Assembly: GCA_963636335.1 (NCBI GenBank)
Contig: CAVHJW010000001.1
Location: 1-44,173, forward strand
Direction: 5' to 3'
DNA length: 44,173 bases
Source: a bacterium
GTDB taxonomy: Bacteria > Verrucomicrobiota > Kiritimatiellia > RFP12 > UBA1067
This document shows positions 2,637 to 39,271 of this stretch, in pieces. The position numbers and the translations under genes are program-made. A model generated the notes under the pieces. It searched no databases. It saw only the letters and a program-made list of their open reading frames with translations, and was not told the DNA's origin. Within the stretch, counting starts at the first letter, position 1, and each line of letters begins with the position of its first letter.

Positions 2637-2647
2637 ATTATACCATA
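2637..2647 (-). promoter_or_regulatory. extended -10 promoter TATGGTATAAT (minus strand)
   Basis: The reverse complement of 2637-2647 is TATGGTATAAT. The ATG at comp 2626 lies 10 nt downstream with no Shine-Dalgarno sequence. Confidence 0.55.
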
Positions 2648-7463: not shown

Positions 7464-7474
7464 TATGGTATAAT
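7464..7474 (+). promoter_or_regulatory. extended -10 promoter TATGGTATAAT
   Basis: Exact 11-mer. The ATG at 7488 lies 13 nt downstream with no Shine-Dalgarno sequence. Confidence 0.55.
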
Positions 7475-9297: not shown

Positions 9298-9308
9298 TGT
9301 GGTATAAT
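9298..9308 (+). promoter_or_regulatory. extended -10 promoter TGTGGTATAAT
   Basis: TGG + TATAAT. The ATG at 9318 lies 9 nt downstream with no Shine-Dalgarno sequence. Confidence 0.55.
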
Positions 9309-21738: not shown

Positions 21739-21764
21739 CGCGCCACCCCTCGGCGCGACTTTTT
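21739..21764 (+). terminator. weak candidate Rho-independent terminator
   Basis: CGCGCC / GGCGCG stem with a 7-nt loop, followed by ACTTTTT, immediately after the methyltransferase stop codon. Confidence 0.35.
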
Positions 21765-21792: not shown

Positions 21793-21803
21793 TATGGTAT
21801 AAT
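21793..21803 (+). promoter_or_regulatory. extended -10 promoter TATGGTATAAT
   Basis: Exact 11-mer. The etfB ATG at 21812 lies 8 nt downstream of the hexamer with no Shine-Dalgarno sequence. Confidence 0.6.
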
Positions 21804-21811
21804 ACATAAGT

Positions 21812-22609
21812 ATGAACGGATATAACTGCATTGTCTGCATCAAGCAGGTGCCAGACACGAAACAGGTGACTGGCGCGGCGATGAAGGAGGATGGCACGAT
21901 TAATCGCGCCGCCCTACCCGCAATCTTCAACCCCGAGGACAAGAACGCCCTTGAAGCGGCGCTCTGGGTCAAAGAGACGTATGGTGGCACGGTGACCGTC
22001 ATCACGATGGGTCTCCCCGCCGCGAAGGCGATTTTGCGCGAGGCGTTGATGTGCGGCGCGGATCGCGCCGTCCTCGTCACGGATCGTAAGGCGGCCGGTT
22101 CGGATACGCTTGCGACGAGTTACATTCTCTCGCAGGCCGTGAAGAAATTTAATCCCGATCTCGTCTTTTGCGGTCGTCAGGCGATTGACGGCGACACGGC
22201 GCAGGTCGGCCCGCAGATTGGCGAGAAGCTCGATTGCGCGGTCGTCACGTACCTTGAGAAACTTGAAATGGAGGGGAATGTCGCCATCGCGACGCGCGAC
22301 ATTGGTACGGGCATTGAGACGTGCCGCGCCAAGCTCCCCGCGCTCTTCACCGTGACCGAGAAGTTCGGCGAGCTTCGCCCTTATCGGATGCGCCGTGTTA
22401 TGAAATATAAAAACGCCGAGCCCGAGATTCTCGACTGCGCGGCGATTGGTTGCGAGGACGCGCGTTGCGGCTTCGCCGGCTCGCCGACGAGCGTCAACAA
22501 GATTGAGTCCGTCGTCCTCGCGGGCGGCGCGTTCAAGGAGGTCGCTCCGACCGACGAAGGCCTTGCGGGTCTTGTCGCGGAACTCGTGGCAGACCACACA
22601 ATCGGCTAA
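21812..22609 (+). CDS. etfB: electron transfer flavoprotein beta subunit, bifurcating-type signature
   Basis: CIKQVPDT, NPEDKNALEAAL and CGRQAIDGDTAQVGPQIGEKL. The last is the DGDTAQVG form seen in anaerobe bifurcating Etf, unlike the DDDCNQTG form of mitochondrial-type Etf. Confidence 0.9.
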   Translation: MNGYNCIVCIKQVPDTKQVTGAAMKEDGTINRAALPAIFNPEDKNALEAALWVKETYGGTVTVITMGLPAAKAILREALMCGADRAVLVTDRKAAGSDTLATSYILSQAVKKFNPDLVFCGRQAIDGDTAQVGPQIGEKLDCAVVTYLEKLEMEGNVAIATRDIGTGIETCRAKLPALFTVTEKFGELRPYRMRRVMKYKNAEPEILDCAAIGCEDARCGFAGSPTSVNKIESVVLAGGAFKEVAPTDEGLAGLVAELVADHTIG

Positions 22610-22638
22610 AAACTCAAAACGTCTAACGGACAATCGCT

Positions 22639-23688
22639 ATGGAACGAAATAAAGGTGAAGTCTGGGTCTTCGCGGAGCAGGAAGAAGGGCGCCTCTCCGA
22701 CATCGTCTTCGAGTTGCTTGGCAAGGCGCGCGAGCTCGCCGCGACACTGAATGTCAAGGTCGGCGCGGTCTTGATGGGCGCGTTCGATGAGAAGGGGCTT
22801 TCGACTCTCGCGTCCTCGCTCACGGCAGGCGGCGCGGATCGGGTGCACGTCCTCAATGACGCGGCGCTCAAGGTCTTCCGCAACAAGGCCTACCGCCATT
22901 CGCTCGTGGAACTCGTGAAGGAATGTGCGCCGCAGATCGTGATCTTCGGCGCGACGCACATGGGTCGCGACCTCGCGCCCTCGGTTGCTTCCGCGCTTCG
23001 GTGCGGGCTGACGGCCGACTGCACGGATCTTCAGATTGGAAACTTTGAAGACAAGAAGACGAAGGAGACGTTTACGAACGTCCTCCATCAGATTCGTCCC
23101 GCGTTCGGCGGCAACATCATCGCGACAATCGTCAACGCGCGCCATTGGCCGCAGATGGCGACGGTGCGCGAGGGTGTCATGAAGGCGTTGGATGAGACGG
23201 AAAAGTCTTCGCGTGCTTCAATGACGCCTGATGTCGTTGTTCACGATGCGCATCTCGCGGGCGTTGAAATTCCCGTTGAGGTTGTTGAGATTCTTCGCAA
23301 GGTCTCATCCGTCAACTTGAAGGGTGCGCGCATCATCGTCGCAGGCGGTGCGGGCGTGGGTTCGAAGGAGAACTTCAAACTTCTCCATGAGCTCGCCACG
23401 CTTCTCGGTGGCGCGGTTGGCGGCTCACGTGCGGCGGTGGACTTGGGCTACTGCGAGCACGAGCGTCAGATTGGTCAGACGGGCGTTACGGTGCGCCCAG
23501 CGCTCTTCATCAGTTGCGGCATCTCGGGGGCCGTGCAGCACCTCGCGGGCATGCAAGACTCGGCGAAGATCATCGCGATCAACACGGACAAGGACGCGCC
23601 AATCTTTCAGGTGGCGCACTACGGCATTGTGGGCGATCTGAACGTCGTCCTCCCGAAGCTCATCAAGGCGATTCGCGCGAAAGGCTAA
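22639..23688 (+). CDS. etfA: electron transfer flavoprotein alpha subunit
   Basis: RCGLTADCT, the C-terminal FAD-binding SRAAVDLGY...QIGQTG and ISGAVQHLAGM...IIAINTD. Confidence 0.9.
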   Translation: MERNKGEVWVFAEQEEGRLSDIVFELLGKARELAATLNVKVGAVLMGAFDEKGLSTLASSLTAGGADRVHVLNDAALKVFRNKAYRHSLVELVKECAPQIVIFGATHMGRDLAPSVASALRCGLTADCTDLQIGNFEDKKTKETFTNVLHQIRPAFGGNIIATIVNARHWPQMATVREGVMKALDETEKSSRASMTPDVVVHDAHLAGVEIPVEVVEILRKVSSVNLKGARIIVAGGAGVGSKENFKLLHELATLLGGAVGGSRAAVDLGYCEHERQIGQTGVTVRPALFISCGISGAVQHLAGMQDSAKIIAINTDKDAPIFQVAHYGIVGDLNVVLPKLIKAIRAKG

Positions 23689-23692
23689 GACC

Positions 23693-25420
23693 ATGGGTAA
23701 CTTCTACACAGACAATCAGGACATCGCAGACACGCTCGACCTTCTGGACCTTTCAGAGGTCGCGACCCTCTTTGAGGAGGACTTCCGCTTCGCGAAGGAA
23801 TATGACTTCGCGCCGAAGAGCGCGGAGGAGGCGATTGATAACTACAAGCGCGCGATTTCGCTTTGTGGTGACATTATGGCCAACCGCATCGCGCCGCTCG
23901 CTGAAGAGACCGACCGCGTTGGCAACACGCTGAACGAGGACGGCTCGGTGACGCGCGCGCCTGGGATGAAGCTCGCGATTGACCTCTTTGGTCAGACGGG
24001 GTTGATGGGTGTGACCATTCCCTATTACCTCGGCGGCCTCAACATGCCGGGCACGGTGCTCACGGCTTGCAATGACATCGTCTCGCGCGGCGACGCCTCG
24101 CTCATGAACCTCTTTGGCCTTCAGGGCATCGCCGAGACGATCAATCAGTTCGCCGACGAGGAGATCAAGAAGGAATACGTGCCGCGCCTCGTCTCGGGCG
24201 AGTGGACGGGCGCGATGGTTCTCACGGAACCCGATGCCGGCTCGGATCTTCAGAGTGTGAAGACGACGGCCTATCAGGACGCGAACGGCAACTGGTTTGT
24301 GAACGGCGTCAAGCGCTTCATCACGAACGGCTGCGGCGAGGTGCTGCTCGTCCTCGCGCGCACCGAGCCCGAGTTCTCGGACGGGCGCGGGCTTAGCTGC
24401 TTGCTCGTTGAGAAGGGCCCCTGGGTGAAGGTGCGTCGGCTTGAGAACAAACTGGGTATCCATGGCTCGCCGACGTGCGAGATGGTCTTCACCGAAGCGC
24501 CCGCGAAGTTGATTGGCCTTCGTAAGCGCGGCCTCATCACCTACGTCATGTCGCTTATGAACGGCGCGCGTATGGGTATCGCCGCACAGGGCACGGGCAT
24601 TGGCGAGGCCGCCTTGCGCGCCGCGCGCGAATACGCCGCGAGCCGTGCGCAGTTCGGTGTGACGATTGACCACTTCCCCGCGTTGCGCGAAATCATGAGC
24701 ACGATGAGCGTTGAGTTGCAGGCCTCGCGCCTTCTCACCTACTACGCCTCCAAGAACGTCGATCTGGAGGCGGGGCTGACGCGCAAGTTCGCTGCGCTTA
24801 AGGGGACGAGCGAGGCGGCGGGGGTGCGCACACGCCTCAAGAAATACGCCGCGTTCAACAAGATGCTGACGCCGATGGCGAAGTACTACGGCTCGGAAAT
24901 GTCGATGCGCAACGCGCAGGGCGCGATTAGCGTCCTCGGCGGTTCGGGCTTCATGAAAGACTATCCGTGTGAGCGCTACTTGCGCGACAGCCGCATCGCG
25001 ACGATCTACGAGGGTACCTCGCAATTGCAAGTCGTTGCCGCCGTCGCGGGCGTGACGGGTGGGCTCGTGAAGGATGTCATCGACGACATTCTGGGCGAGG
25101 GCTGGCGTGCGAACCATCCGCGCATGTCCGCACTCCTTGACGATCTTGCCGCGACGATTGAAGGCATGAAGGCGCATGAAGATGCGAAGACCTACCATGA
25201 CCTTTCCGCGCGCAAACTCGTCGATGTCGGCATTTGGCTCGTCGTGGCCGCGCTTTTCGTGAAGGCCTCCGAGAAGAAGGCTTCCAAGAAGGCCGCGCTT
25301 GAGTTCTGGCTTCAGGTTGCGCTGCCGCGTGTCCGCGCGGAGTTGGAACTCGTCAAGTCGGGCTACATGGGGTCGACGGCGGACTTTGAGACGCTCGCGC
25401 CGATGCCGCAGGAAGTTTAA
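23693..25420 (+). CDS. long-form acyl-CoA dehydrogenase (about 575 aa, with N- and C-terminal extensions)
   Basis: ACAD core with GAMVLTEPDAGSD, FITNG and the catalytic Glu context IATIYEGTSQLQ. The roughly 130 aa C-terminal extension resembles the bacterial Acyl-CoA_dh_C type. Confidence 0.85.
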   Translation: MGNFYTDNQDIADTLDLLDLSEVATLFEEDFRFAKEYDFAPKSAEEAIDNYKRAISLCGDIMANRIAPLAEETDRVGNTLNEDGSVTRAPGMKLAIDLFGQTGLMGVTIPYYLGGLNMPGTVLTACNDIVSRGDASLMNLFGLQGIAETINQFADEEIKKEYVPRLVSGEWTGAMVLTEPDAGSDLQSVKTTAYQDANGNWFVNGVKRFITNGCGEVLLVLARTEPEFSDGRGLSCLLVEKGPWVKVRRLENKLGIHGSPTCEMVFTEAPAKLIGLRKRGLITYVMSLMNGARMGIAAQGTGIGEAALRAAREYAASRAQFGVTIDHFPALREIMSTMSVELQASRLLTYYASKNVDLEAGLTRKFAALKGTSEAAGVRTRLKKYAAFNKMLTPMAKYYGSEMSMRNAQGAISVLGGSGFMKDYPCERYLRDSRIATIYEGTSQLQVVAAVAGVTGGLVKDVIDDILGEGWRANHPRMSALLDDLAATIEGMKAHEDAKTYHDLSARKLVDVGIWLVVAALFVKASEKKASKKAALEFWLQVALPRVRAELELVKSGYMGSTADFETLAPMPQEV

Positions 25421-25433
25421 GGGAGAAAAAGTC

Positions 25434-26264
25434 ATGGGTTGGTTTGAGCCAAAGAAGGAGAAGGTGGCCATCGCGCCGGCGAAGGCGCTCTGGGCGATTT
25501 GCCCGAAGTGCAAGAGCCACTTCGAGAAGTCGGTCTGGAAGAAAAATAATTCAATTTGCTCGAAGTGCAATTACCACGGGCGGCTTCCTGTCCGTGAGCG
25601 CATTGCGCAGATTGCAGACGCGGGTTCGTTCAAGGAGGTCTTCCGCGAGATCTCCTATTCGGATCACCTCGCGTTCCATGATGCGACGGGGGCCTACAAA
25701 GAGAAGGTTGAGGCCACGATTGCGAAGACGGGCGAGACCGAATCCATCGTGATGGGCGCGTGCACCATTGACAAGCATCCCGCGATGCTGGGCGTGATGG
25801 ACTTTGGCTTCATGGGTGGTTCGCTCGGCACGGGCACGGGTGAACGCATCGCCCGCGCGTGTGAGCAAGCGATTGCCGAGCGCCGTGCGCTCGTCATTTT
25901 CTCGGCCTCAGGCGGCGCGCGCATGCACGAGGGTATTCTTTCGCTTATGCAAATGGCGAAGACGTCGGCCGCGATCGCGCGGCTGAAAGAGGCGGGGCTT
26001 CCCTTTATCTCCGTTCTCACCGACCCGACGACGGGCGGTGTCTCGGCTTCGTTCGCGATGCTCGGTGACATCAACGTGACGGAGCCGAAGGCACTCATCG
26101 GTTTCGCGGGGCGTCGCGTCATTGAGAACACGATTCACCAGAAGCTTCCTGATGACTTCCAGACGGCCGAGTATCTCGAGAAGCACGGCTTCATTGACCG
26201 CGTCGTTGAGCGTAAAAATCTCAAGGCGTTCATCGCGAAGATGCTCGGCTATTTCGGCGTTTAA
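25434..26264 (+). CDS. accD: acetyl-CoA carboxylase carboxyltransferase beta subunit
   Basis: N-terminal Zn ribbon CPKCKSHFEKSVWKKNNSICSKCNYH, then GFMGGSLG and SASGGARMHEG. I chose the ATG at 25434 (GGGAG Shine-Dalgarno sequence) over the tracked 25299, which lies inside the ACAD gene. Confidence 0.9.
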   Translation: MGWFEPKKEKVAIAPAKALWAICPKCKSHFEKSVWKKNNSICSKCNYHGRLPVRERIAQIADAGSFKEVFREISYSDHLAFHDATGAYKEKVEATIAKTGETESIVMGACTIDKHPAMLGVMDFGFMGGSLGTGTGERIARACEQAIAERRALVIFSASGGARMHEGILSLMQMAKTSAAIARLKEAGLPFISVLTDPTTGGVSASFAMLGDINVTEPKALIGFAGRRVIENTIHQKLPDDFQTAEYLEKHGFIDRVVERKNLKAFIAKMLGYFGV

Positions 26265-26285
26265 AGACTTTCAAGGAGAAGAGAC

Positions 26286-27089
26286 ATGGCTGGCAAGACA
26301 ATGACGGCGTTTGATAAGGTGAAGATCGCGCGCGACCCGAAGCGCCCGCACCTGAAAGACTTCATCGCTGGGATGTGCGAGGATTTTGAGGAACTTCATG
26401 GCGACCGCCTCGTGAACGACGACCGCGGTCTCGTTGCGGGCTTCGCAACGATTGACGGCGAGAAGTGCCTCGTTCTCGGACACAACAAGGGCGCGACGGT
26501 TGAGGAGAATATGGCCTCCAACTTCGGCATGGCGAATCCCGATGGCTATCGCAAGGCGATGCGTCTTGCGAAGCTCGCCGAGCGCTTCGCGTTGCCGGTT
26601 GTCACCTTCGTTGACACGCCCGGTGCCTATCCAGGCAAGGAGGCGGAAGAGCGCGGTCAGGCCGAGGCGATTGCGAAGAGCCTTGAGTTCTTCTCGCGTC
26701 TCGCTACGCCAATCGTTGTTGTCGTGACGGGTGAAGGCGGTTCGGGCGGCGCGCTCGCGATCGCCGTCGGTGATCGTATCCTCATGATGGAGAACGCGGT
26801 CTATTCGGTGATTTCCCCCGAGGGATGCGCAGGCATTCTTTGGCGTGACGGCAAGAAGGCACCTGAGGCGGCTGAGGCGCTCAAGGTGACGGCCCCTGAT
26901 CTTCTTCAGTTGAAGGCGATTGATGAGATTGTCAAAGAGCCCGCGGGTGGCGCGCAAAAGAATCATAAGACGGCGATTGCGAACGTAAAGAAAGCCGTCT
27001 TGAAGGCGATTCGAGAATTGAAGAAGATTCCCGTTGAGCAACTTCTTGAGATGCGCTACGAAAAATTGCGCGGCTACGGCAAGAAGTGA
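26286..27089 (+). CDS. accA: acetyl-CoA carboxylase carboxyltransferase alpha subunit (short N-terminus)
   Basis: ARDPKRPHLKDF, VLGHNKG, FVDTPGAYPG and GEGGSGGALAI. Confidence 0.9.
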   Translation: MAGKTMTAFDKVKIARDPKRPHLKDFIAGMCEDFEELHGDRLVNDDRGLVAGFATIDGEKCLVLGHNKGATVEENMASNFGMANPDGYRKAMRLAKLAERFALPVVTFVDTPGAYPGKEAEERGQAEAIAKSLEFFSRLATPIVVVVTGEGGSGGALAIAVGDRILMMENAVYSVISPEGCAGILWRDGKKAPEAAEALKVTAPDLLQLKAIDEIVKEPAGGAQKNHKTAIANVKKAVLKAIRELKKIPVEQLLEMRYEKLRGYGKK

Positions 27090-28219
27090 GCGCCGTCTCC
27101 CTTTCGGACTTCGGTCTCGTCTCGGCGCTTGGTTGCGGGAAAGAAGAAAGCGAAAAGAATCTTTTTCTCGGCTCGCGCACGAACATGAAGGAAATCTCGC
27201 TCGCAGGAGGCGAGACTTCCTTTTTTGGCTTTGCCGCGCTTACTCCTGATGGGTTTGCGTCCGCGCCAACGCGTGTCGCCGCGCTTCTTGATGCGGCCGC
27301 GCGTCAACTTGATTGGAAGGCGCTCTACGCAGAGGTTGATCCGCGAAAAGTCGGCGCGGTTGTCGGGACGAGTAACTCAACGATGGAGGAGTTTACGGAT
27401 AAGCCCGACAAGATTGATATGGCTTATCCAGCCGAGCGCCTACGCGAAGTCTGGGGGGTGAAGGGCCCCGCCTACAGCGTTTCCACGGCGTGCTCGTCGA
27501 GTGCGAAAGCGTTCATGTCGGCGCGCCGTCTTCTTGAAGCGGGTGTTTGCGATGCCGTCATCGTGGGTGGCGCGGACGCAAAGACGCGCACCGTGATTGA
27601 AGGCTTTCATTCACTTGAGTCGCTTGCTGCGGGGTACACGAAGCCGCTTTCTGACGCGCGCGACGGCATCAATTTAGGCGAAGGCGCGGCCCTCTTTGTC
27701 ATGCGCCGCCTTGGCGAGAGTCGCGCCCCAGATGACATTCTTCTTCTGGGCGTGGGCGAGTCATCTGATGCCTATCACCTCACTGCGCCCGATCCCGAAG
27801 GGCGCGGCGCGGAGCGCGCGATGCGCCTCGCCCTTGAGGATGCGGGGCTTTCGCCCTCTCGCATTGACTATATCAACTTACATGGAACGGGGACGCGCTA
27901 TAATGACGCGATGGAATGTGCGGCCGTTCGGCGCGTTTTTGGTGACCAGATTCCTGTTTCCTCCACGAAGCCTTTAACGGGGCATTGCCTGGGCGCGGCG
28001 GGGGCTGTTGAAGCCGCGCTCTCGGCGCTTGCGCTTCAGCGAGGAAGGGGACTTCCGCCGCACGTCATTGATGCGCCCATTGATCTTAACCTCGCGCCAT
28101 TCCCAATTCCGAGCGTTGGTGACAAGACGCCTGTTCAGACGATTCTTTCAAATGCATTCGCCTTCGGTGGAAGTAACGCGAGCCTTATCCTCTCTCGCGC
28201 GCGAAAGGGGGACGCATGA
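27086..28219 (+). CDS. beta-ketoacyl synthase, aryl-polyene ApeO-like position (Cys-His-His intact)
   Basis: Active-site TACSSS (Cys codon 27491-27493), NLHGTGT and TGHCLGAAG. The GTG start overlaps the accA stop (GTGA). Confidence 0.8.
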   Translation: MSAVSLSDFGLVSALGCGKEESEKNLFLGSRTNMKEISLAGGETSFFGFAALTPDGFASAPTRVAALLDAAARQLDWKALYAEVDPRKVGAVVGTSNSTMEEFTDKPDKIDMAYPAERLREVWGVKGPAYSVSTACSSSAKAFMSARRLLEAGVCDAVIVGGADAKTRTVIEGFHSLESLAAGYTKPLSDARDGINLGEGAALFVMRRLGESRAPDDILLLGVGESSDAYHLTAPDPEGRGAERAMRLALEDAGLSPSRIDYINLHGTGTRYNDAMECAAVRRVFGDQIPVSSTKPLTGHCLGAAGAVEAALSALALQRGRGLPPHVIDAPIDLNLAPFPIPSVGDKTPVQTILSNAFAFGGSNASLILSRARKGDA

Positions 28220-28671
28220 CAGATCTTGAACGCCTCCTGCCGCAGAAGAGCCCGATGATCCTCTTGAGCGGCTACGACGAATCGGGTGATGACGTGATGC
28301 GCGTCACGGCGTATGTTGATATTGAGGCCTCGTCGCCGTTCTGTGAGGCCGAGGGTGTCCCAGCGTGTGTGGCGCTCGAATATATGGCGCAGGCGATGGC
28401 CCTTGTCGTCGGTCGCCTCCGCGCGGCGCGGGGGCTTTCTGCACAAATCGGCTTTGTTCTGGGCTCACGCAAATTTGAGACATTTATTCCTTTTTTTGCC
28501 CGTGGTCAGCGTTACACGGTGACCGCCTCATGCACCTACGAAGATGAGTCGTTTGGCAGTTTCGACTGCACGGTTTCGTCTTCCTCGGGTGTGCTCGCCG
28601 CGCGCGCGACGATGACGGCATACCAACCTTCGGGCGACATGACAGAGGAGAAACTTGAAGCCTATGAATAA
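28216..28671 (+). CDS. hotdog-fold 3-hydroxyacyl-ACP dehydratase-like protein (ApeP-like), with Gln at the expected His position
   Basis: 151 aa. N-terminal LLPQKSPMILL and central ACVALEYMAQAMAL resemble the FabZ / ApeP-type LLPHxxPMLLLD ... E..AQ layout. ATGA overlap with the upstream KS. Confidence 0.6.
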   Translation: MTDLERLLPQKSPMILLSGYDESGDDVMRVTAYVDIEASSPFCEAEGVPACVALEYMAQAMALVVGRLRAARGLSAQIGFVLGSRKFETFIPFFARGQRYTVTASCTYEDESFGSFDCTVSSSSGVLAARATMTAYQPSGDMTEEKLEAYE

Positions 28672-29341
28672 GACGGTCATCGTGACGGGGTCAAGCCGCG
28701 GCATCGGCAAGGCGATTGCCGAGACGCTACGCGCCGACGGTTATTCGGTTGTCACGCACTCGGTGAAGTCGGGCGGCACCGACCTCGTCTTCGATGTCGC
28801 CGACCGCGCGGCGGCGAAGGCGGCGTTGGACGCGTTCGTGGCCGAGCACGGCGCACCCTATGGCATCGTTCTTAACGCGGGTATTGCCGATGACAATGCG
28901 TTCCCCGCGATGGAGGATGCGCAGTGGGATCGCGTCCTTCGGACGGACCTTGACGGGTTTTACAATGTCCTAAAGCCTCTCGTCCTGCCTATGGTCCAAG
29001 CGCGACAGGGCGGGCGCATCGTCGTCATCTCGTCAATCTCGGGCGTGATTGGCAATCGCGGCCAGACGAACTATGCGGCCGCGAAGGCGGGGCTTATTGG
29101 CGCGGCGAAGTCGCTCGCGGTGGAGCTCGCGCGCCGTCGGATCACGGTCAACTGCATCGCGCCGGGCGTTGTTGAGACGGAGATGATTGAGGGCGTCTTT
29201 GCCGAGGAGGTCTTAAAGGCGATCCCGATGCGGCGCTTTGGTCGCCCCGAGGAGGTCGCGGGGGCGGTTCGTTATTTTCTTTCTGATGAGGCCGCTTATG
29301 TGACGCGGCAGGTCTTGAATGTGAACGGAGGGATGTTCTGA
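28664..29341 (+). CDS. 3-oxoacyl-ACP reductase (SDR, FabG/ApeQ-like)
   Basis: TGSSRGIG, NAG and the catalytic S...YAAAK (NYAAAKAG). An alternative TTG start lies at 28655. Confidence 0.85.
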   Translation: MNKTVIVTGSSRGIGKAIAETLRADGYSVVTHSVKSGGTDLVFDVADRAAAKAALDAFVAEHGAPYGIVLNAGIADDNAFPAMEDAQWDRVLRTDLDGFYNVLKPLVLPMVQARQGGRIVVISSISGVIGNRGQTNYAAAKAGLIGAAKSLAVELARRRITVNCIAPGVVETEMIEGVFAEEVLKAIPMRRFGRPEEVAGAVRYFLSDEAAYVTRQVLNVNGGMF

Positions 29342-29342
29342 A

Positions 29343-30566
29343 ATGAGGCGCGTCGTTGTCACGGGAATGGGAATTGTCAGTTCGCTCGGCCATGATGTCG
29401 CGACGGCCTTTGAGCACCTTCAGACAAAGAAAAATTGTGTTGAGGTCTCGGCGGATCTCATGACCTATAAGGGGCTTCAGACGCACCTCTGGGCACCCGC
29501 AAAATGGACGCGCCCCGCGCGCTATACACGTAAGATTGTGCGCACGATGAGCCCTGTTTCGGAAATGGCGCTCGATGCGACCGAGCAGGCCATCGCTCAG
29601 GCCGGGCTTACCGATTCGCCCATTCTCAAGGCGGGTCGTTGCGGCGTTGCTTACGGCTCGTGCTCGGGTGGCGTTGAGGCGAACGCCGACTTCTTCTCGA
29701 TTCTCATGAACCGCGAGGTGCGGAACGTGACGAGCTCAACCTACATCAAGATGATGCCGCAGACCTGCGCCGTGAATCTCTCCGTTCATTTCGGGACAAC
29801 GGGGCGACTTTTGCCGACGGGAACGGCGTGCACGTCGGGTTCGCTCGCAATCGGCGAGGCGTGCGAGGCCATTCGCTTCGGTCAGCAGGATGTCATGATC
29901 GCGGGCGGCGCGGAGGAGTTTTCCGTCACACAGGTCGCCGTCTTTGATACGCTCTTTGCAACGTCGCGTTGTAATGAAACACCCGAGGCCACGCCGCGTG
30001 CGTTTGATTCAAGCCGTGACGGGCTTGTGATTGGCGAGGGCGCGGCGACGCTCATCTTGGAGGAGCGTGACCATGCGCTTGCGCGTGGCGCGACCATTCT
30101 CGCGGAGGTTGCGGGTTTTGGTACAAACACCGATGGACGCCACGTCACCCAGCCGAATGCCGAGACGATGGCGGCGGCCTTGCGCCTTGCGCTTCAGGAT
30201 GCGGTCCTCTCGCCGGAGGCGATTGGCTACGTCAATGCGCACGGCACGGCGACCGATCGAGGCGATGTCGCAGAAGGGACGGCGATGGCGACCGTCTTTG
30301 GCGCCTCGCGCCCCGCCGTGAGCACGATTAAAAACTACACGGGGCATACGCTCGGCGCGTGTGGTGCGATTGAGGCCATCATGACGATTGAAATGATGCG
30401 CCACGGTCTTTTCGCCCCGAACCTCAACCTTGTCACGCCCGACCCCGCCTGCGGTGAGCACGACTTTATTATGGGCGATATGCGGCATCTTGAAACCGAG
30501 TATGTGATGAGCAACAATTTTGCCTTCGGTGGCATCAACACCTCGCTTGTTTTTCGTCGCACATGA
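29343..30566 (+). CDS. beta-ketoacyl-ACP synthase (FabF/FabB-like, ApeR-like position; Cys-His-His intact)
   Basis: GTACTSGS (Cys codon 29829-29831), NAHGTAT, TGHTLGACG and the C-terminal NNFAFGGINTSLVF. Confidence 0.85.
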   Translation: MRRVVVTGMGIVSSLGHDVATAFEHLQTKKNCVEVSADLMTYKGLQTHLWAPAKWTRPARYTRKIVRTMSPVSEMALDATEQAIAQAGLTDSPILKAGRCGVAYGSCSGGVEANADFFSILMNREVRNVTSSTYIKMMPQTCAVNLSVHFGTTGRLLPTGTACTSGSLAIGEACEAIRFGQQDVMIAGGAEEFSVTQVAVFDTLFATSRCNETPEATPRAFDSSRDGLVIGEGAATLILEERDHALARGATILAEVAGFGTNTDGRHVTQPNAETMAAALRLALQDAVLSPEAIGYVNAHGTATDRGDVAEGTAMATVFGASRPAVSTIKNYTGHTLGACGAIEAIMTIEMMRHGLFAPNLNLVTPDPACGEHDFIMGDMRHLETEYVMSNNFAFGGINTSLVFRRT

Positions 30567-31027
30567 AAAAAGCTCGTCTACTCGGCATGCGGCGCGTTCA
30601 GTCGCTCAACGAGGCGGATGTCTCGTTCGTGCCGCCGCTTTTGCGTCGTCGCCTCTCGCCTCTGCAACGGATTTTCTTCTTTCTCGCGCACTTTGACGAG
30701 ACGCTGCCGACACCGAAGCGCGTTGTCTTCGCAAGTCGCGACGGCGAAGATACGCTCACGCGCCGCACGGTTGAAGATTTTCATACGGATGGCACCGCCT
30801 CACCGCATCGCTTCAGCGCGTCTGTCTATAACGCCGCGCCTGGGCTTTGGAGCGTCTTTACGAAGAACATCGCGCCTTACACGTCTGTTGCCGCCGGGCG
30901 TGAAACCGTTCGCGTCGGCCTTTTGGAGGCGCTTCTCCCCGCCGAGACGCCGACCCTGTTTGTCTACGCTGAAGAAACGGATGGCGGGCACGGCTTCTCT
31001 TGTCTCTATGGCTTCGACGGCGATTAG
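30563..31027 (+). CDS. chain-length-factor-like protein (Ketoacyl-synt_2 / ApeC-like, no active-site Cys)
   Basis: 154 aa. LLRRRLSPLQR, VFASRDGE, SPHRFSASVYNAAPG and LFVYAEE follow the pattern of the short KS N-terminal-domain proteins that partner with KS in aryl-polyene-type clusters. ATGA overlap with the upstream KS. Confidence 0.65.
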   Translation: MKKARLLGMRRVQSLNEADVSFVPPLLRRRLSPLQRIFFFLAHFDETLPTPKRVVFASRDGEDTLTRRTVEDFHTDGTASPHRFSASVYNAAPGLWSVFTKNIAPYTSVAAGRETVRVGLLEALLPAETPTLFVYAEETDGGHGFSCLYGFDGD

Positions 31028-31736
31028 GCTTCTGCGCGGCTCTCTTGCGGTCCTCTTCGGCTTTGCCTTCGCCGTGGGCGCGATTCTTCTTTCGCCGCTC
31101 ATGCTCGTTTTCTCGCGCCCCGAAGGCGCCCAGCCGCTCGTTCGCGCCATTTGGCGACCGCTCGTGTGGCTTTTTGAGAAAACGCGCCTCATTCGCGTCG
31201 TGCGCGGCGATGTTGAAAGCCCACACGGCGCGATCATCGTCGCGAATCACCCCTCGCTCATTGATGTTGTCCTTTTTGTCGCGCTTTTTCCAAAGACGCT
31301 TTATGTTGCGAAGTCGCCTCTTCGCTCAAGTTTCGCCCTTGGGCGCATCGTCCGCGCGACCTCGCTTTTTGATGACGCGCGTCTTCTTGATGAGGCGCGG
31401 CCCTATCTTGAGCACGGTTGGAATATCCTTATTTTTCCCGAGGGGACGCGCTCGCCAAAGGAAGGGCTTCATTCCTTCCGGCGCGGCGCGGCGCAACTCG
31501 CCCTCCGCACGGGCGCGCCGCTTGTTGCGATGGGTCTTTGTCTCTCGCGCCGTATTCTTGCGAAGGGACAGCCGCTCTTTGACATGGGCGAAAAGACGGT
31601 CGTCTATTCGTTTCACGCGCGCGCGCCGTTTCGCGCCGAGGTGAGACCTGGAGAGAGCGCGCACGCGGCGGCGGTACGTGTCACGCGTGATCTTGAAGAG
31701 GCGATCGCCCTGAATCTTCAGAAGGACAGTGAGTAA
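31008..31736 (+). CDS. lysophospholipid / 1-acyl-sn-glycerol-3-phosphate acyltransferase family (LPLAT, ApeD-like position)
   Basis: HX4D motif NHPSLID (31248-31265), FPEGTRS, and an N-terminal TM segment. I chose the ATG at 31008. The tracked 30618 start is Arg-rich shadow over the CLF gene. Confidence 0.75.
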   Translation: MASTAIRLLRGSLAVLFGFAFAVGAILLSPLMLVFSRPEGAQPLVRAIWRPLVWLFEKTRLIRVVRGDVESPHGAIIVANHPSLIDVVLFVALFPKTLYVAKSPLRSSFALGRIVRATSLFDDARLLDEARPYLEHGWNILIFPEGTRSPKEGLHSFRRGAAQLALRTGAPLVAMGLCLSRRILAKGQPLFDMGEKTVVYSFHARAPFRAEVRPGESAHAAAVRVTRDLEEAIALNLQKDSE

Positions 31737-31771
31737 CCGAGTAATATTCGATAATGAAGGGGGAATCAAAA

Positions 31772-32536
31772 ATGGAACAGGGCTCTCGAGGCGAGTATGA
31801 TTTTAGGGTGCGCACATACGAGTGCGGACCCGATGGCGTTGCGACATTACCGACCCTTTGCAATTATTTGCAGGAAGCAGCCAGTATGAATGCGGAGGCG
31901 TTGGCTTTCTCGCGCACAAACTTTATGGCGGAGGGTGAGAATATCTCGTGGGTGTTGACGCGCTTGCGCGTTTGCATGACGCGCTATCCGAAATGGGAGG
32001 AGACTGTGCATGTTGTCACGTGGCCGAGCGGTGGGCGGCGCGTGGCTGCGACGCGCGAGTTTAGGCTCTGCGACGACACGGGCGCGCAAATCGGTGTGGC
32101 GACGAGCGAGTGGATGCTCATTGATCTTGCGACGCGCCGCATCGTGCCTATCCCCGAAACGGTTCTTGCCCTTGCGCAGGGATCTACGCGCGTGCTCGAA
32201 GACGCGCCCTTTACAAAATTGCGCTGGACCTGCACGGAGACGACATCTGACGCGCAGACGTTTCGCGCACGCCGCAGCGACATTGACCTCAACGGCCATG
32301 TCAACAACGTTCATTATGTTTCATGGCTTCTTGAGACGGTGCCCGCAGGCTTTTGCACGGATTTTGAAATCGTCTATCGCTCCGAGACGCGGGTCGGCGA
32401 AATCGTGCGTGCGGAGAGCGTGGAGGTTGAGCCTCACGTCTTCGTGCATCGCCTTTCCGATTCCACCGGCCACGATCACGTTCTCGCTTGTACGCGCTTC
32501 GCGAGCGAGCCGACACGTTTATCGGATCGTTCATAG
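31772..32536 (+). CDS. acyl-ACP thioesterase (FatA/FatB-type double hotdog)
   Basis: YDFRVRTYECGPDGVATLPTLCNYLQEAA and DIDLNGHVNNVHY are typical of the Acyl-ACP_TE family. The ATG at 31772 follows an AGGGGGA Shine-Dalgarno sequence, and the ATG at 31754 is an alternative start. Confidence 0.75.
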   Translation: MEQGSRGEYDFRVRTYECGPDGVATLPTLCNYLQEAASMNAEALAFSRTNFMAEGENISWVLTRLRVCMTRYPKWEETVHVVTWPSGGRRVAATREFRLCDDTGAQIGVATSEWMLIDLATRRIVPIPETVLALAQGSTRVLEDAPFTKLRWTCTETTSDAQTFRARRSDIDLNGHVNNVHYVSWLLETVPAGFCTDFEIVYRSETRVGEIVRAESVEVEPHVFVHRLSDSTGHDHVLACTRFASEPTRLSDRS

Positions 32537-32537
32537 G

Positions 32538-32548
32538 TGTGGTATAAT
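32538..32548 (+). promoter_or_regulatory. extended -10 promoter TGTGGTATAAT
   Basis: TGG + TATAAT starting 2 nt after the thioesterase stop codon. The ruvA ATG at 32557 lies 8 nt downstream. Confidence 0.5.
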
Positions 32549-35419: not shown

Positions 35420-37125
35420 ATGGAGACATCATTCGAGACCGTTGTTGAGATTTTGGAACGCAACGCGCGCGAGTGGCCGAACGACGTCGCGCTCGTTGAG
35501 ATCAATCCGCAAGAGCTGGAAGCGCACCATACGACATGGCGCGAATATTCGCTCATTGAGAGTTCTTCCATTGAGGCGTTTCGGAGCGAGATGACATGGC
35601 GCGCATTCGATGAGAAGGCGAATCGCTTTGCGAATCTCCTTTTGAGCCGCGGCTTCAAGAAGGGCGAGAAGGTCGCGATTCTCCTCATGAATGGCTTGGA
35701 GTGGTTGCCGATTTACTTCGGCATTTTGAAGGCGGGCTGTATGGCTGTGCCGCTCAACTTCCGCTACACGGCCGACGAGATCAAGTATTGCCTCGAGCTT
35801 TCGGATGCGCAAGCCCTCGTCTTTGGGCCTGAGTTTATTGGTCGCGTTGAGCAGATTATTGACCTCGTGCCGGCCGTTAAGACGCGTTTCTATGTGGGCG
35901 ATGACTGCCCCTCGTTCGCTGATTCCTACCAGACGCTTCTTTCCTATTGCTCGTCTAAGGCACCCGCGATTCCGATGACGACGGATGACGAGGCGGCTAT
36001 CTACTTTTCGTCGGGGACTACGGGCTTCCCGAAAGCGATCGTCCTTCAGCACCACTGCCTTGTCCATGCCTGCAAGGTTGAGCAAGATCACCACGGCCAG
36101 ACGAAGGACGACACGTTCCTCTGCATTCCGCCACTCTATCATACGGGCGCGAAGATGCACTGGTTTGGCTCGTTGCTCGTGGGTGGCCGCGCCGTTCTCC
36201 TAAAGGGTGTCAAGCCCGAGTGGATTTTGCGTGCGGTCTCGGAGGAACGTTGCACGATTGTTTGGCTGCTCGTTCCTTGGGCGCAAGACATCTTGGACGC
36301 CATTGAGCGCGGTGATGTGAACCTCGCAGACTTCCGCCTTGCGCAGTGGCGGCTTATGCATATCGGTGCGCAGCCTGTTCCGCCCGCGCTCATCAAGAGG
36401 TGGAAGACGGTCTTTCCTCATCACGACTACGACACGAACTACGGGCTTTCGGAGTCGACGGGTCCGGGAGCCGTTCACCTGGGCGTTGAGAACATTGACC
36501 ACGTTGGCGCGATTGGCGTTCCCGGCTACGGTTGGCAGACAAAGATTGTGGGCTCAGACGGCATCACGCCCGTCGAGGACGGCAAGGTGGGTGAACTTGC
36601 GCTCAAAGGCCCAGGCGTCATGAAGGAATATTATAAGAACCCGCAGGCGACGGCCGAAATTATGAAGGAGCCCGGGTGGCTCTTGACGGGCGACATGGCG
36701 GAAAAGCGCGATGGTTTCATTTACCTCGTTGATCGCGCGAAAGATGTCATCATCTCGGGTGGCGAGAATCTTTACCCCGTTCAGATTGAAGACTTCATTC
36801 GCGCACATCCCGCGGTGAAGGATGTTGCGGTCATCGGCCTACCTGACAAGCGCATCCCGCGGTGAAGGATGTTGCGGTCATCGGCCTACCTGACAAGCGA
36901 CTCGGTGAAATCGCGACGGCGATTGTCTCGGTGAAGGATGGCGCGACGCTCGACGAGGCGCAGTTGCAGACGTTCTGTTTGGGGCTGCCGCGCTACAAGA
37001 GACCGCGCAAAATCATCTTCGCAGAGGTGCCGCGCAACCCGACGGGCAAAATTGAGAAGCCGCGCCTCCGCAAAATGTATGGCGCGGAGACCCTCGTCGC
37101 CCAGCAGAACGGCATTGAGGTCTAA
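35420..37125 (+). pseudogene. AMP-dependent acyl-CoA/aryl-CoA ligase interrupted by a 47-bp tandem duplication (frameshift)
   Basis: Motifs YFSSGTTGFPKAI (A3), NYGLSES (A5), LTGDM (A7) and VDRAKDVIISGGENLYP (A8) lie in ORF 35420-36865. The remaining C-terminus, including PRNPTGKIEK (A10 Lys), lies in ORF 36862-37125 in another frame. Deleting one 47-bp copy yields a continuous 552-codon ORF reading ...GLPDKRLGEIATAIV.... Confidence 0.8.
36805..36898 (+). repeat. perfect 47-bp direct tandem duplication (2 copies)
   Basis: 36805-36851 and 36852-36898 are both CATCCCGCGGTGAAGGATGTTGCGGTCATCGGCCTACCTGACAAGCG, verified base by base. Confidence 0.95.
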
Positions 37126-37150
37126 CGAATCAGGGCAACATTCGGCCGAA

Positions 37151-37161
37151 TATGGTATAAT
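37151..37161 (+). promoter_or_regulatory. extended -10 promoter TATGGTATAAT
   Basis: Exact 11-mer. The ATG at 37172 lies 10 nt downstream with no Shine-Dalgarno sequence. Confidence 0.6.
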
Positions 37162-37171
37162 ACGATACAAT

Positions 37172-39271
37172 ATGGACAAGCAGAATCTCTATCTCGGTAT
37201 CGACATTGGCTCGACGACGTTCAAGGCTGTTCTTCTCGCGGGCGATGGCACTGTCCTTCGCACCGTCTACAAGCGGACGCAGCCCGTTGAGGCGGGCAAG
37301 GTCGCGTGCACGGGGCACTGTCATGCGTGTGGCGCGTGCAGCGGCGGGTCGGTGAAGCGTCTCGCGCTTGAGTTCCTGAAGGTTGCGGGCATCGCATCTT
37401 TCTCGGATCTCTCGTCTTTTGTCGTGACGGGTAGCCAGATTGTTGAGGACACAAAGAAATTCTTGCCTTTCGACTTTCAGGTGAGTGAGGTGACCGCGCA
37501 CGTTGCGGGCGCAAAGTTCCTTCATCCCGATGTTGATGCCATTATTGACTGCGGCGGTCAGGACTCAAAGTGCATGGTCTACAATCCGCCGATGAACCTC
37601 TGGACGAGCATGATGAGCGGCGTCTGCGCGGCGGGAACGGGCAGTTTCCTCGACTCGGTGGCGCAGAAGCTCGGCGTCCGAATTGAGGATGTCGCCGACC
37701 GTGTCAACTACGACTCAAAGACTGAATTCAGTTCCGTCTGCGCCGTCCTCTCGGCGACGTCGATCAACAAGTTTAAGAACCGCGTGCCGCTCGGTGATCT
37801 CTTGGCCGGCGCGTGCAAGGCGCAGGCGCGCACGATTCTTAACTCGGTTGGTCAGCTCCTCTTGAATGCTCCAGGTCGCAAGATTCTCTTTCAGGGCGGC
37901 GTTGCGTTCAACAAGGCCGTTGCTTACTTCCTCGGCAAACTGACGGGCAGCGAGATTATTATTCCGCAGTATCACGAGGTGATGGGCGCACTCGGCGCGG
38001 CCGTCATTGCGCGCCAACTTCATGACCTCAAGGTGTCGGGTCATCTGAATCTTGAGAAGGTTGACTACGAGCCGACGCGCGGGAAGTCCGTTCTTCTGCG
38101 CATCAAGTCGACGAAGCACGACTTCTTCTCGAAGGACGAAACGAAGCCGCTCGTTTGGCGCAATCTCTTCTTCCCGACTGAAATCCTGAATGCGATGGAC
38201 TGCCGCGTGCGCACGCTTGAGACCTACGCCGCGCTCTTTGGTCGCCGCGCCGACAAGGTGAAGGAGGCTCTCGGGCGCGCCGCGCAGAAGGGCTTCGACG
38301 GGCAGACGTGTTCGTTTTTGCGTATGCTTGAAGGTATGGATCTCGAGAAGCCTGACTTCATCGTCTCAACCGTTCAGCCGTGTCAGCAGGCCGAGCGTGT
38401 TTTCGCCGATCTCGCGCGCGAATACAAAATTGAGGATCGTCTCTACTCGTTGCAGACGCCGATCAACGCACACTCGCGCAACGCCGTGGAGGTGATGGCC
38501 GACGGGCTTGCCGAGTCTGTCTTTGAGATGGAGAAGGCCTTTGGGCGCAAGATGGATCCAGGTCGACTTGAAGAGGCGTGCGTCCTTTCAAACGAGGCCG
38601 CCGCGCTTGCGAAGAAGTGTCAGGAATTGCGCTTCACATCCCCGCCGCTCGTGCGCGGGAGCGAGGCGATTTACAACGCTATCGTCTTCTCGCAGCTCTG
38701 GGGGCGCCAAGATCTCGTGGATATCCAGAAGGCCTACTACGAGGAACTTCTGATGAAGAAGGAGTGGGCCGAGAAGCGCTACAAAATGGGTGACACGCAC
38801 CGCCTCCTCTGGCTTCACCTGCCACCGTTCTACGATACGCGCCACCTTGACTTTATTGAGACGACGTGCAATGCGCCGATCGTCTTCGAAGAGACGAACT
38901 TCGTCGGCTGGGAGCCGCTTGACCCGAAAGATCCCTACCGCTCGCTCGCGAAGAAGCTCCTTCAGTCAGGCTTTCTCGACCCCGCGCTGCGCGTTGAGTA
39001 CGTCAAGCGCGCCATTCCAGCGGGTCAGTTCAATGGCGTCATCCTCTACACACACGGCTTTGGTCGCTGCTCGCTTGCCGACCGCGCGCTCTCCAAGCAT
39101 CTGCGCGAGGAGCTTGATGCGATCCATGTGCCGCTTCTCACGCTTGAGGGCGACTGCATGGATGCGTCGATCGACCCGTGCTCAACAACGACGAAGATTG
39201 CTTCGTTCGCGGAGGCGCTGAACCTAAACCGTTACGGGAATATCTTCGGCAAACTCAACGAGAAGAAATGA
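37172..39271 (+). CDS. fusion of a BcrAD/BadFG-type (HgdC-like) ATPase activase with a 2-hydroxyacyl-CoA dehydratase (HGD-D) domain
   Basis: The N-terminal half has LGIDIGSTTFKAV, DCGGQDSKC, VCAAGTGSFLD and SSVCAVLSATS, collinear with HgdC including its two cluster Cys. The C-terminal half has QTCSFLR, QPCQQAE, TTCNAPIV, GFGRCS and LEGDCMD, which is HGD-D-like. I chose the start at 37172. The tracked 36938 start is an Arg-rich overlap with the ligase gene. Confidence 0.8.
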   Translation: MDKQNLYLGIDIGSTTFKAVLLAGDGTVLRTVYKRTQPVEAGKVACTGHCHACGACSGGSVKRLALEFLKVAGIASFSDLSSFVVTGSQIVEDTKKFLPFDFQVSEVTAHVAGAKFLHPDVDAIIDCGGQDSKCMVYNPPMNLWTSMMSGVCAAGTGSFLDSVAQKLGVRIEDVADRVNYDSKTEFSSVCAVLSATSINKFKNRVPLGDLLAGACKAQARTILNSVGQLLLNAPGRKILFQGGVAFNKAVAYFLGKLTGSEIIIPQYHEVMGALGAAVIARQLHDLKVSGHLNLEKVDYEPTRGKSVLLRIKSTKHDFFSKDETKPLVWRNLFFPTEILNAMDCRVRTLETYAALFGRRADKVKEALGRAAQKGFDGQTCSFLRMLEGMDLEKPDFIVSTVQPCQQAERVFADLAREYKIEDRLYSLQTPINAHSRNAVEVMADGLAESVFEMEKAFGRKMDPGRLEEACVLSNEAAALAKKCQELRFTSPPLVRGSEAIYNAIVFSQLWGRQDLVDIQKAYYEELLMKKEWAEKRYKMGDTHRLLWLHLPPFYDTRHLDFIETTCNAPIVFEETNFVGWEPLDPKDPYRSLAKKLLQSGFLDPALRVEYVKRAIPAGQFNGVILYTHGFGRCSLADRALSKHLREELDAIHVPLLTLEGDCMDASIDPCSTTTKIASFAEALNLNRYGNIFGKLNEKK

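Follow-up and report, generated by a model that had tools for sequence, protein, structure and literature searches.

Two kinds of described system frame the locus considered here. Aryl polyene (Ape) clusters, known from E. coli CFT073, Xenorhabdus doucetiae and Acinetobacter baumannii, comprise the functions ApeA to ApeR, and their synthases make polyenes, normally without an enoyl reductase (ER) (PMC8253772). The Bcd/EtfAB complexes of C. difficile (5OL2) and A. fermentans (4KPU/4L1F), and the CarCDE complex (6FAH), join an acyl-CoA dehydrogenase (ACAD) to an electron-transferring flavoprotein (Etf). Homologues of both lie next to one another in a 44,173-nucleotide stretch of a Kiritimatiellia genome (contig CAVHJW010000001.1, assembly GCA_963636335.1; the whole stretch is hereafter the window), where twelve genes, all on the + strand, run from 21812 to 32536. 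These encode EtfB, EtfA, a long-type ACAD (gene acd), the AccD and AccA subunits of acetyl-CoA carboxylase (ACC), a block of two ketosynthases (KS1 and KS2) with a dehydratase (DH), a ketoreductase (KR), a chain-length factor (CLF) and a lysophospholipid acyltransferase (LPLAT) in the order KS1-DH-KR-KS2-CLF-LPLAT, and a thioesterase for chains bound to acyl carrier protein (ACP). A sequence-only reading of this DNA had proposed that the Etf/ACAD pair performs double-bond chemistry for the synthase while AccDA serves as its dedicated extender supply; it had named as its alternative a lipid-metabolism supra-operon with no mechanistic link between the parts. Comparison with relatives, in which the modules lie apart, speaks against the former and makes the latter the better-supported reading. 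The twelve genes are not a new integrated pathway; their unusual feature is their neighbourhood, which is explained by rearrangement. We consider it likely that the locus is a lineage-specific operon fusion of separately inherited known modules within a co-directional array, and that the fusion arose in one sub-lineage of gut Kiritimatiellia/Lentisphaerae-type bacteria. Nothing in the locus lies outside known kinds.

To place the window (58.8% G+C), it was compared with public genomes. The region matches contigs of three NCBI metagenome-assembled genomes (MAGs; GCA_963651625.1, GCA_963628225.1, and GCA_963615675.1) at 99 to 100% protein identity throughout, and its nearest relatives among GTDB genomes are gut and rumen MAGs labeled Kiritimatiellae/Kiritimatiellia, Lentisphaerae, or Verrucomicrobia. 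An assignment to Desulfovibrionaceae, considered because of the 59% GC, was rejected on these matches. The evidence that carries our conclusion is the distribution of synteny among such relatives, whose loci and contigs are designated by L-numbers. With ACAD as the anchor, 185,579 species genomes yielded 80 loci from other species. EtfBA adjoins ACAD in about 50 of the 64 informative loci, with ACAD identities ranging from 43 to 97%, and the EtfB-EtfA-ACAD trio extends from Kiritimatiellia to Planctomycetota and Bacteroidales (e.g., Alistipes putredinis). AccD follows ACAD in 6 of 61 informative loci, and the KS block follows it in a single one of 54 (L080). Many relatives with 83 to 86% ACAD identity lack both Acc and KS genes at this place even though their 10-kb flanks are complete (e.g., L011 to L013, L025, and L058). 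When KS2 was used as the anchor, 73 metagenome loci were recovered, and none of the 29 informative ones, those with at least 4 kb upstream, has Etf, ACAD, or Acc beside KS2. L088 and L090, with 77 to 80% KS2 identity, hold (ApeI-like)-DH-KR-KS2-CLF-LPLAT only, neighboured by a helicase, a large surface protein, a sugar transferase, or a ComM-like gene. Similarly, AccA, ACAD, and Etf were absent within 7 to 8 kb of KS1 on all six contigs anchored on that protein (63 to 70% identity).

The fused arrangement was found only in the window species, L005, L006, and L080; the L005 contig ends inside AccD and the L006 contig inside KS1. Synteny between the Etf/ACAD/Acc genes and the KS block, whose absence from relatives the sequence-only reading had named as grounds for refuting its proposal, holds for this small set and fails elsewhere. 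Because it is lost outside the nearest sub-lineage (1/54, 0/29, and 0/6 for the three anchors), the Etf-ACAD trio, AccDA, and the Ape-like genes move independently. L006 is labeled an archaeon and L080 Alistipes. More broadly, L006, L007, L031, and L080 are filed as Methanomethylophilaceae, Faecalibacterium prausnitzii, Muribaculaceae, and Alistipes onderdonkii bins; all have 66.6 to 67.7% G+C and an ACAD 80 to 89% identical to the Kiritimatiellia one, and mis-binning of contigs from a Kiritimatiellia-like organism is the probable explanation.

Around KS1, Kiritimatiellia relatives show a recurrent layout: ACP-ACP-x133-ApeH/ApeI fusion-x180-~970-aa protein-(lipoprotein)-KS1-(x)-DH-KR-KS2-CLF-LPLAT. 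L160 has it complete through LPLAT, with KS1, KR, and KS2 at 69%, 85%, and 78% identity to the window proteins, and is as close to the window as L080. The layout is broken after KS1 in L158, L159, and L165. Tandem ACPs occur in L160, L161, and L165, L161 being a stand-alone ACP-ACP-x-ApeH/I operon from MAG CAYQUI01, the same MAG in which L029 carries Etf-ACAD without Acc or KS genes. The ApeI-like partner has its own gene in L088 (8289-8663), L092, and L112; L160 (3265-4584), L161, and L165 encode it as a fusion with the ApeH ligase. Identities of orthologues to the window range from 73 to 81% for KS2, 70 to 85% for KR, and 63 to 72% for KS1. The Ape-like system is frequently split between loci in this clade. 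Gut and rumen Kiritimatiellia widely carry a reduced, often fragmented Ape-like lipid synthase with lineage-specific uncharacterised parts, and cluster callers that depend on contiguity can be expected to mis-delimit such systems, either pulling in Etf/ACAD/Acc or missing the distant ACP/ApeH half. A protein found on many NCBI contigs (P0341) was considered as the window species' own ApeH/I locus and rejected, as it belongs to the relative MAG CAYQUI01.

One component of the layout, a conserved protein of about 970 aa, matches no Pfam family (L158, 5095-8004; L159, 5053-8004; L160, 5101-8004; L165, 4080-6998; L166, 1140-4067). Its gene is located immediately 5' of KS1 or nearby on that side, with a 4-nt overlap of its stop and the KS1 start in L158, L159, and L160; in L166, a gene for a 130-aa lipoprotein lies between the two. 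Conserved proteins of about 133 aa, 180 aa, and 130 aa (the lipoprotein) accompany it. They are uncharacterised, and the window has none of them.

How far could the twelve genes nevertheless act as one pathway? In the proposed scheme, AccDA would supply malonyl units, the Ape-like core would build an unsaturated chain, and Etf/ACAD would replace a FabI/K/L/V-type reductase. The single promoter box, the tight spacing, and the start/stop overlaps across junctions fit such a scheme, as does the retention of the arrangement in L080, L006, and L005. Some ACAD-family enzymes act on carrier-protein-bound acyl chains, and the window ACAD has weak NCBIfam similarities to MbtN, RedW, and PigA. The statement that the unit has no ER-type gene also stands, but the argument built on it fails because Ape synthases make polyenes and are normally without an ER (PMC8253772). 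Synteny, as described above, is lost beyond the nearest sub-lineage, and the Etf-ACAD trio is conserved alone across three phyla. Moreover, the ACAD most resembles enzymes acting on acyl-CoA rather than acyl-ACP, and relatives whose ACAD gene lies far from any KS block still encode a protein of more than 80% identity, which argues against a new substrate in this lineage. Taken with the comparative data, these points render the integrated pathway highly improbable.

Three observations weigh against a simple fusion of independent modules. First, the arrangement is present in more than one species, with L080 and L006 at about 67% GC versus 59% for the window and a KS1 identity of 69%; a fusion kept over appreciable divergence could therefore reflect selection for co-expression. 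Second, the accA stop overlaps the KS1 GTG start by 4 nt, a spacing that suggests translational coupling. Third, the absence of synteny elsewhere is compatible with a functional link that evolved in this lineage alone. In such a case, Etf and the long ACAD might reduce the enoyl products of a stripped-down Ape-like synthase in this sub-lineage only, acting either on chains released by the FatA-type enzyme and reactivated with CoA or on chains still bound to ACP. The synthase would then yield, in a strict anaerobe, a membrane lipid that is partly saturated and not a pigment, and ferredoxin would be reduced along the way. If true, a type II synthase would have recruited a flavin-bifurcating enoyl reductase, and this would be the first example of a type II polyketide/fatty-acid synthase that relies on an electron-bifurcating Etf/ACAD for reduction. 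Comparison across relatives makes this unlikely, and we regard the whole scenario, including its substrates and its outcome, as exceedingly improbable.

Operon fusion of known modules, the explanation that we prefer, rests on what each module is. The twelve genes were called from an open reading frame (ORF) listing, Pfam, NCBIfam, and the assemblies' own gene calls, all of which agree. Pfam, NCBIfam, and PDB matches bear out the identity that the sequence-only reading had assigned to every gene. Its placement of the Etf in the bifurcating type is favoured by the similarity scores, the two ketosynthases, as its proposal required, are not housekeeping FabF or FabB, and the likeness that it saw between KS-DH-KR-KS plus CLF-LPLAT and ApeO-P-Q-R plus ApeC-D is matched by the gene order of a canonical cluster, L124.

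EtfB, the small Etf subunit (21812..22609, +; PF01012), scores 128 to 179 bits against the small subunits of five solved bifurcating Etfs (5ol2_B, 6fah_B, 7koe_A, 4kpu_B, and 7qh2_B) versus 61 to 79 bits against canonical Etfs (1efp_B, 1efv_B, and 1o94_C). The bifurcating references are C. difficile Bcd-Etf (5OL2), CarDE (6FAH), 7KOE, the A. fermentans Etf (4KPU), and LctBC (7QH2). A stretch of EtfB, GRQAIDGDTAQVGPQI, is identical to that of C. difficile EtfB; this stretch, taken as diagnostic, is the one pointer to a putative second, bifurcating FAD in place of AMP and to NADH-driven ferredoxin reduction. The large subunit, EtfA (22639..23688, +; PF01012 and PF00766), behaves alike, with 225 to 281 bits versus bifurcating EtfA/CarE/LctC and 81 to 143 bits versus canonical proteins. 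Both subunits being nearer to bifurcating Etfs, and the pair being contiguous with ACAD (4-nt gap), the Etf is predicted to be of the bifurcating type. Some caution is due with a call from similarity, because a related clostridial-type Etf, that of Fusobacterium nucleatum, is reported to act as a canonical ETF (PMC12630350).

The ACAD (23693..25420, +) is a 575-aa long-type protein with four ACAD Pfam domains, a weak PF12186 match, N- and C-terminal extensions, and, in the sequence itself, a YEGT catalytic-Glu motif. Its scores stay below every NCBIfam equivalog cut-off, and no substrate is therefore assigned. The best PDB matches of the core are short ACADs and Bcd, while full-length matches are to ACADs of 591 to 611 aa (e.g., 8r1e, 6ijc, and 6kse); against Bcd and CarC, the core aligns at 130 to 170 bits. 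Homologues with at least 80% identity fall into more than 120 clusters. As in Bcd/EtfAB and CarCDE, which are the complexes most similar to both window Etf subunits, etfB and etfA lie beside the ACAD gene. The window differs from them in its gene order, etfB-etfA-acd, in the length of the ACAD (575 aa versus about 380 aa for Bcd, an architecture nearer to that of the 591- to 611-aa ACADs), and in EtfA, which is without the N-terminal ferredoxin domain found in CarE and LctC. Most likely, then, the trio would form an NADH-dependent, bifurcating-type enoyl-CoA reductase/acyl-CoA dehydrogenase complex, and its likeliest role would be in the energy or acyl-CoA metabolism of anaerobes.

In relatives, there appears to be a further long ACAD of very similar sequence that lies away from etfBA, in unrelated contexts. 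Thus, L004, L015 to L018, L026, and L055 have an ACAD 83 to 86% identical to that of the window with no Etf nearby; in L004, the neighbours are a peptidase U32 gene and an Lnt-like gene. MAG RUG10640 (L048 and L064) has one Etf-linked ACAD copy plus a second copy.

Downstream of the ACAD gene, AccD (25434..26264, +), the carboxyltransferase beta subunit of ACC, scores 346.8 bits against TIGR00515 (cut-off, 317.45) and has the N-terminal CxxC...CxxC zinc ribbon (CPKC...CSKC), read from the sequence and shared with housekeeping carboxyltransferases. AccA, the alpha subunit (26286..27089, +), is a short form lacking about 50 N-terminal model residues, its PF03255 match covering profile positions 49 to 310 of 310, and scores 400.6 against NF004344 (cut-off, 357) and 358.4 against TIGR00513 (cut-off, 319.3). 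Both subunits thus pass the housekeeping equivalog cut-offs of NCBIfam/TIGRFAM, and AccD-AccA is the ordinary carboxyltransferase half of ACC. It departs from the housekeeping enzyme in the short AccA and, unusually, in the overlap of its stop with the start of an Ape-type KS. The window has no accB or accC.

KS1 (27086..28219, +; GTG start) is an ApeO-like ketosynthase. Its score against NF006618 (PRK09185), 387.8, falls just under the cut-off of 407; its top PDB matches are the ApeO chains 6qsp_A and 7f28_B, at 236 to 246 bits versus about 170 bits for FabF, and its Cys/His/His motifs read ACSSS, HGTGT, and GHCLG. KS2 (29343..30566, +) is ApeR-like, scoring 587 against NF006587 (PRK09116; cut-off, 470). 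It also has the Cys/His/His motifs, and it aligns at 437 to 449 bits with 4ewg_A and 7f27_A, both of which are ApeR (PMC8358021), versus 257 bits with FabF/FabB. Both ketosynthases fail the FabF model TIGR03150 (226 and 344 bits for KS1 and KS2; cut-off, 493.75) and the FabB model NF005935 (145 and 296 bits; cut-off, 630). The KR (28664..29341, +) is of the FabG/FabG2, ApeQ-like type (NF004200, 329 versus a cut-off of 273; TIGR01831 fabG_rel, 319.5, just below the cut-off of 338.85). A short, 154-aa ApeC-like CLF subunit follows KS2 (30563..31027, +; PF13723, 97.7 bits), matching the ApeC chain 7f28_A with an E value of 9.6e-11 and 6qsp_B with 3.6e-4. Next comes the ApeD-like LPLAT (31008..31736, +), a lysophospholipid/glycerol-3-phosphate-type acyltransferase (PF01553, 61.7 bits), which follows CLF in relatives and in L124 as well. 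The last gene of the unit encodes a FatA/B-type acyl-ACP thioesterase (31772..32536, +; PF01643 and PF20791), a family different from that of the 4HBT-type ApeK; no such thioesterase comes after LPLAT in L160, L164, or L166.

The DH (28216..28671, +) is an ApeP-like hotdog dehydratase subunit (PF22817, 46.3 versus a cut-off of 27; best PDB match, 6qsr_B). In FabZ, the catalytic pair consists of the GHFP histidine and the EAMAQ glutamate; residue numbering was checked on an alignment with P. aeruginosa FabZ (1U1Z). The ApeP-like proteins have the Glu motif only and no GHFP, whereas the ApeI-like proteins retain GHFP, which fits the single active site published for the ApeI/ApeP heterodimer (PMC8041823). 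The window DH keeps the glutamate, in EYMAQ, and contains no histidine (relatives have none or one), so it has no His/Glu site on its own. An H-to-Q change in its 'LPH' motif was considered as loss of the catalytic His and dropped, the catalytic His sitting in GHFP. In one 514-aa protein, P0193, a KS1-type ketosynthase is fused to an ApeP-like domain (PF00109, PF22817, and PF02801), and this fusion supports a direct functional link between KS1 and DH.

KS1, DH, KR, KS2, CLF, and LPLAT are accordingly homologues of ApeO, ApeP, ApeQ, ApeR, ApeC, and ApeD. L124, a distant KS2 relative, is a canonical Ape cluster with the order ApeH/I-J-K-L-M-N-O-P-Q-R-B-C-D-ACP, and the window reproduces its O-P-Q-R...C-D order. 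Among solved structures, the best matches of the window KS, CLF, and DH proteins are the Ape proteins themselves, and both systems are without an ER and have an acyltransferase for lipid attachment. Two Ape hallmarks are found in the window, namely, an ApeO-type KS with a small ApeC subunit and a second, FabB-like KS (ApeR); three are missing, the ApeI/ApeP heterodimer, the tandem ACPs, and the ApeH loader. In all, the window has only 6 of the 18 gene functions. It lacks the ACPs (ApeE/F), ApeH, ApeI, the methyltransferase ApeB, ApeJ, the 4HBT thioesterase ApeK, and the export set of LolA-like ApeL, RND ApeM, and DUF3261 ApeN, while the LPLAT (ApeD) is present. Kiritimatiellia relatives carry instead the ApeH/ApeI fusion, the Pfam-less ~970-aa protein, and small lipoproteins.

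The gaps were searched for directly in the window. A phmmer search with two AcpP sequences found no ACP among the six-frame ORFs of at least 45 aa, and no small window ORF has a PP-binding Pfam match. Three probes from relatives found no ApeI-like ORF in the six-frame translation of the window. No ApeH-type gene was found either: the only AMP-binding gene in the window (35420-36865) has no ApeI-like domain and, when compared with the L160 locus, which holds ApeH/I, gave no match covering at least 50% of the query. Pfam-level scans of the window found no ApeJ, LolA, MMPL, or DUF3261 genes, whereas L124 has them all. As the window has no ACP, no ApeH-type loader, and no ApeI-like subunit and its DH has no histidine, the block alone cannot be a self-sufficient synthase. 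On the basis of these similarities, its most fitting description would be the 3' part of a reduced Ape-like cluster of the Kiritimatiellia type. By analogy with relatives, the ACPs and the ApeI partner are presumably encoded elsewhere in the genome. The product may be of the Ape type; since the window does not reveal the starter unit, we refrain from the name aryl polyene.

A block so incomplete might be a decaying remnant that makes no product, having become separated from its ACPs, ApeH/ApeI, and the ~970-aa partner. The lack of ACP, ApeI, and other Ape parts in the window, a DH without histidine, and a CLF of 154 aa would all be expected of a remnant. However, all six ORFs of the block are intact, with no frameshifts, and the Cys/His/His motifs of the ketosynthases are present. 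Orthologues are well conserved (63 to 85%), and a DH with one histidine or none and a short CLF are common to relatives with full clusters (L160, L164, and L166). Split layouts, with ApeH/I on another contig, are moreover common in the clade. Decay of the block is, in our judgment, very unlikely.

Under the preferred explanation, the modules would work side by side. A strong leaderless promoter would drive Etf/ACAD, then the ACC carboxyltransferase, the 3' part of the Ape-like system, and the thioesterase. KS1-DH-KR-KS2-CLF-LPLAT would act as the 3' portion of an Ape-type II synthase whose acyltransferase hands the product to a membrane lipid, together with two ACPs and with ApeH/ApeI for starter loading and as dehydratase partner, these being presumably encoded elsewhere. 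The modules would have no catalytic cycle in common; a link between them would not go beyond joint regulation of genes for acyl thioesters and lipids.

The layout of the unit agrees with this. Recomputed 5' to 3', the intergenic gaps are 29, 4, 13, 21, -4, -4, -8, 1, -4, -20, and 35 nt, identical to those reported in the sequence-only reading. The flanking promoter boxes that it described, here placed at 21793-21803 and 32540-32548, and the lack of an internal terminator were likewise reproduced. An extended -10 promoter box, TGGTATAAT, lies at 21795..21803 (+), 8 nt before the etfB ATG; it is the core of TATGGTATAAT, which spans 21793-21803. The next TGGTATAAT box (32540..32548, +) marks where the unit ends on its 3' side; the thioesterase stop lies 4 nt ahead of this box, and the ruvA ATG (32557) follows 8 nt behind it. 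The ruvA product is 197 aa long, and its RuvA_N match begins at residue 1.

In the whole window, TGNTATAAT occurs six times versus 0.11 expected, a count reached in none of 100 shuffles. The six TGGTATAAT boxes lie at 2637-2645 (-) and at 7466-7474, 9300-9308, 21795-21803, 32540-32548, and 37153-37161 (+), so that the interior of the twelve-gene unit contains no box of this type. After each box, an ATG follows at 8 to 13 nt and opens an ORF of 197 to 1,652 aa; no -35 consensus is visible at any of the six. This pattern suggests that the boxes are extended -10 promoters giving leaderless or near-leaderless mRNAs, and it implies true starts shorter than the longest ORF for three genes, at ~9318, ~37172, and ~2627 (- strand). 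For the unit itself, the etfB box predicts a leaderless or near-leaderless transcript. Before etfB and ruvA, the first genes of two units, there is no room for a Shine-Dalgarno (SD) sequence or leader; internal starts come with purine-rich SD-like tracts or overlap the stop of the gene before. The window is a clear example, in a poorly studied group, of TGGTATAAT-type promoters located 8 to 13 nt before start codons, a placement that points to leaderless first genes in this group. The residual value of the locus lies in this leaderless promoter pattern and in the clade-specific uncharacterised genes of the Ape cluster.

A hairpin scan of 20.5 to 33.5 kb found 20 terminator-like sites versus 17.4 +/- 4.7 in shuffles, i.e., no enrichment. 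Those internal to the unit all fall within coding sequence, leaving no credible terminator inside it, and none was found between the thioesterase and ruvA genes, so read-through is possible. Directly 3' of the upstream methyltransferase stop, a hairpin with a T-run (21739..21757, +) is a weak candidate for the 5' boundary. It has six G-C pairs, a 7-nt loop, and the tail ACTTTTTGG; as its fold of -12.6 kcal/mol is unremarkable relative to shuffles (z = -1.08), we describe it only as terminator-like. An Rfam scan of the window gave no family at the gathering score. Judged by spacing and signals, the twelve genes probably form a single transcription unit.

Transcription as one unit invites a further account, in which the modules share no intermediates and one leaderless promoter lets lipid output track acyl-CoA and redox status. 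Every module handles acyl thioesters, and organisms as different in GC as 59% and 67% retain the arrangement. In addition, L009, L032, L039, and L040 show an intermediate state: about 600 nt separate EtfBA-ACAD from a downstream AccDA, and the KS block does not follow. Because ACAD and AccDA are adjacent there without the KS block, stepwise accretion of lipid-related genes downstream of a strong etfB promoter is suggested. Against selection for co-regulation is the character of the window itself, most of which is co-directional and tightly packed. The + strand holds 37 of the 41 called ORFs, and co-directionality is therefore not specific to the twelve-gene unit; unrelated housekeeping genes (ruvA, folE, and a thiD-like gene) are packed in the same manner and direction, so that adjacency is weak evidence of selection. 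We give co-regulation alone a modest chance, well short of likely.

Beyond the unit, 2.9 kb downstream and past ruvA, folE, and the thiD-like gene, the AMP-binding gene at 35420-36865 is acyl-CoA synthetase-like. It is followed by a gene for a fused BcrAD-type activase/HGD-D protein (2-hydroxyacyl-CoA dehydratase-like), which has its own TGGTATAAT box; together, they constitute another acyl-CoA redox module (35420-39271).

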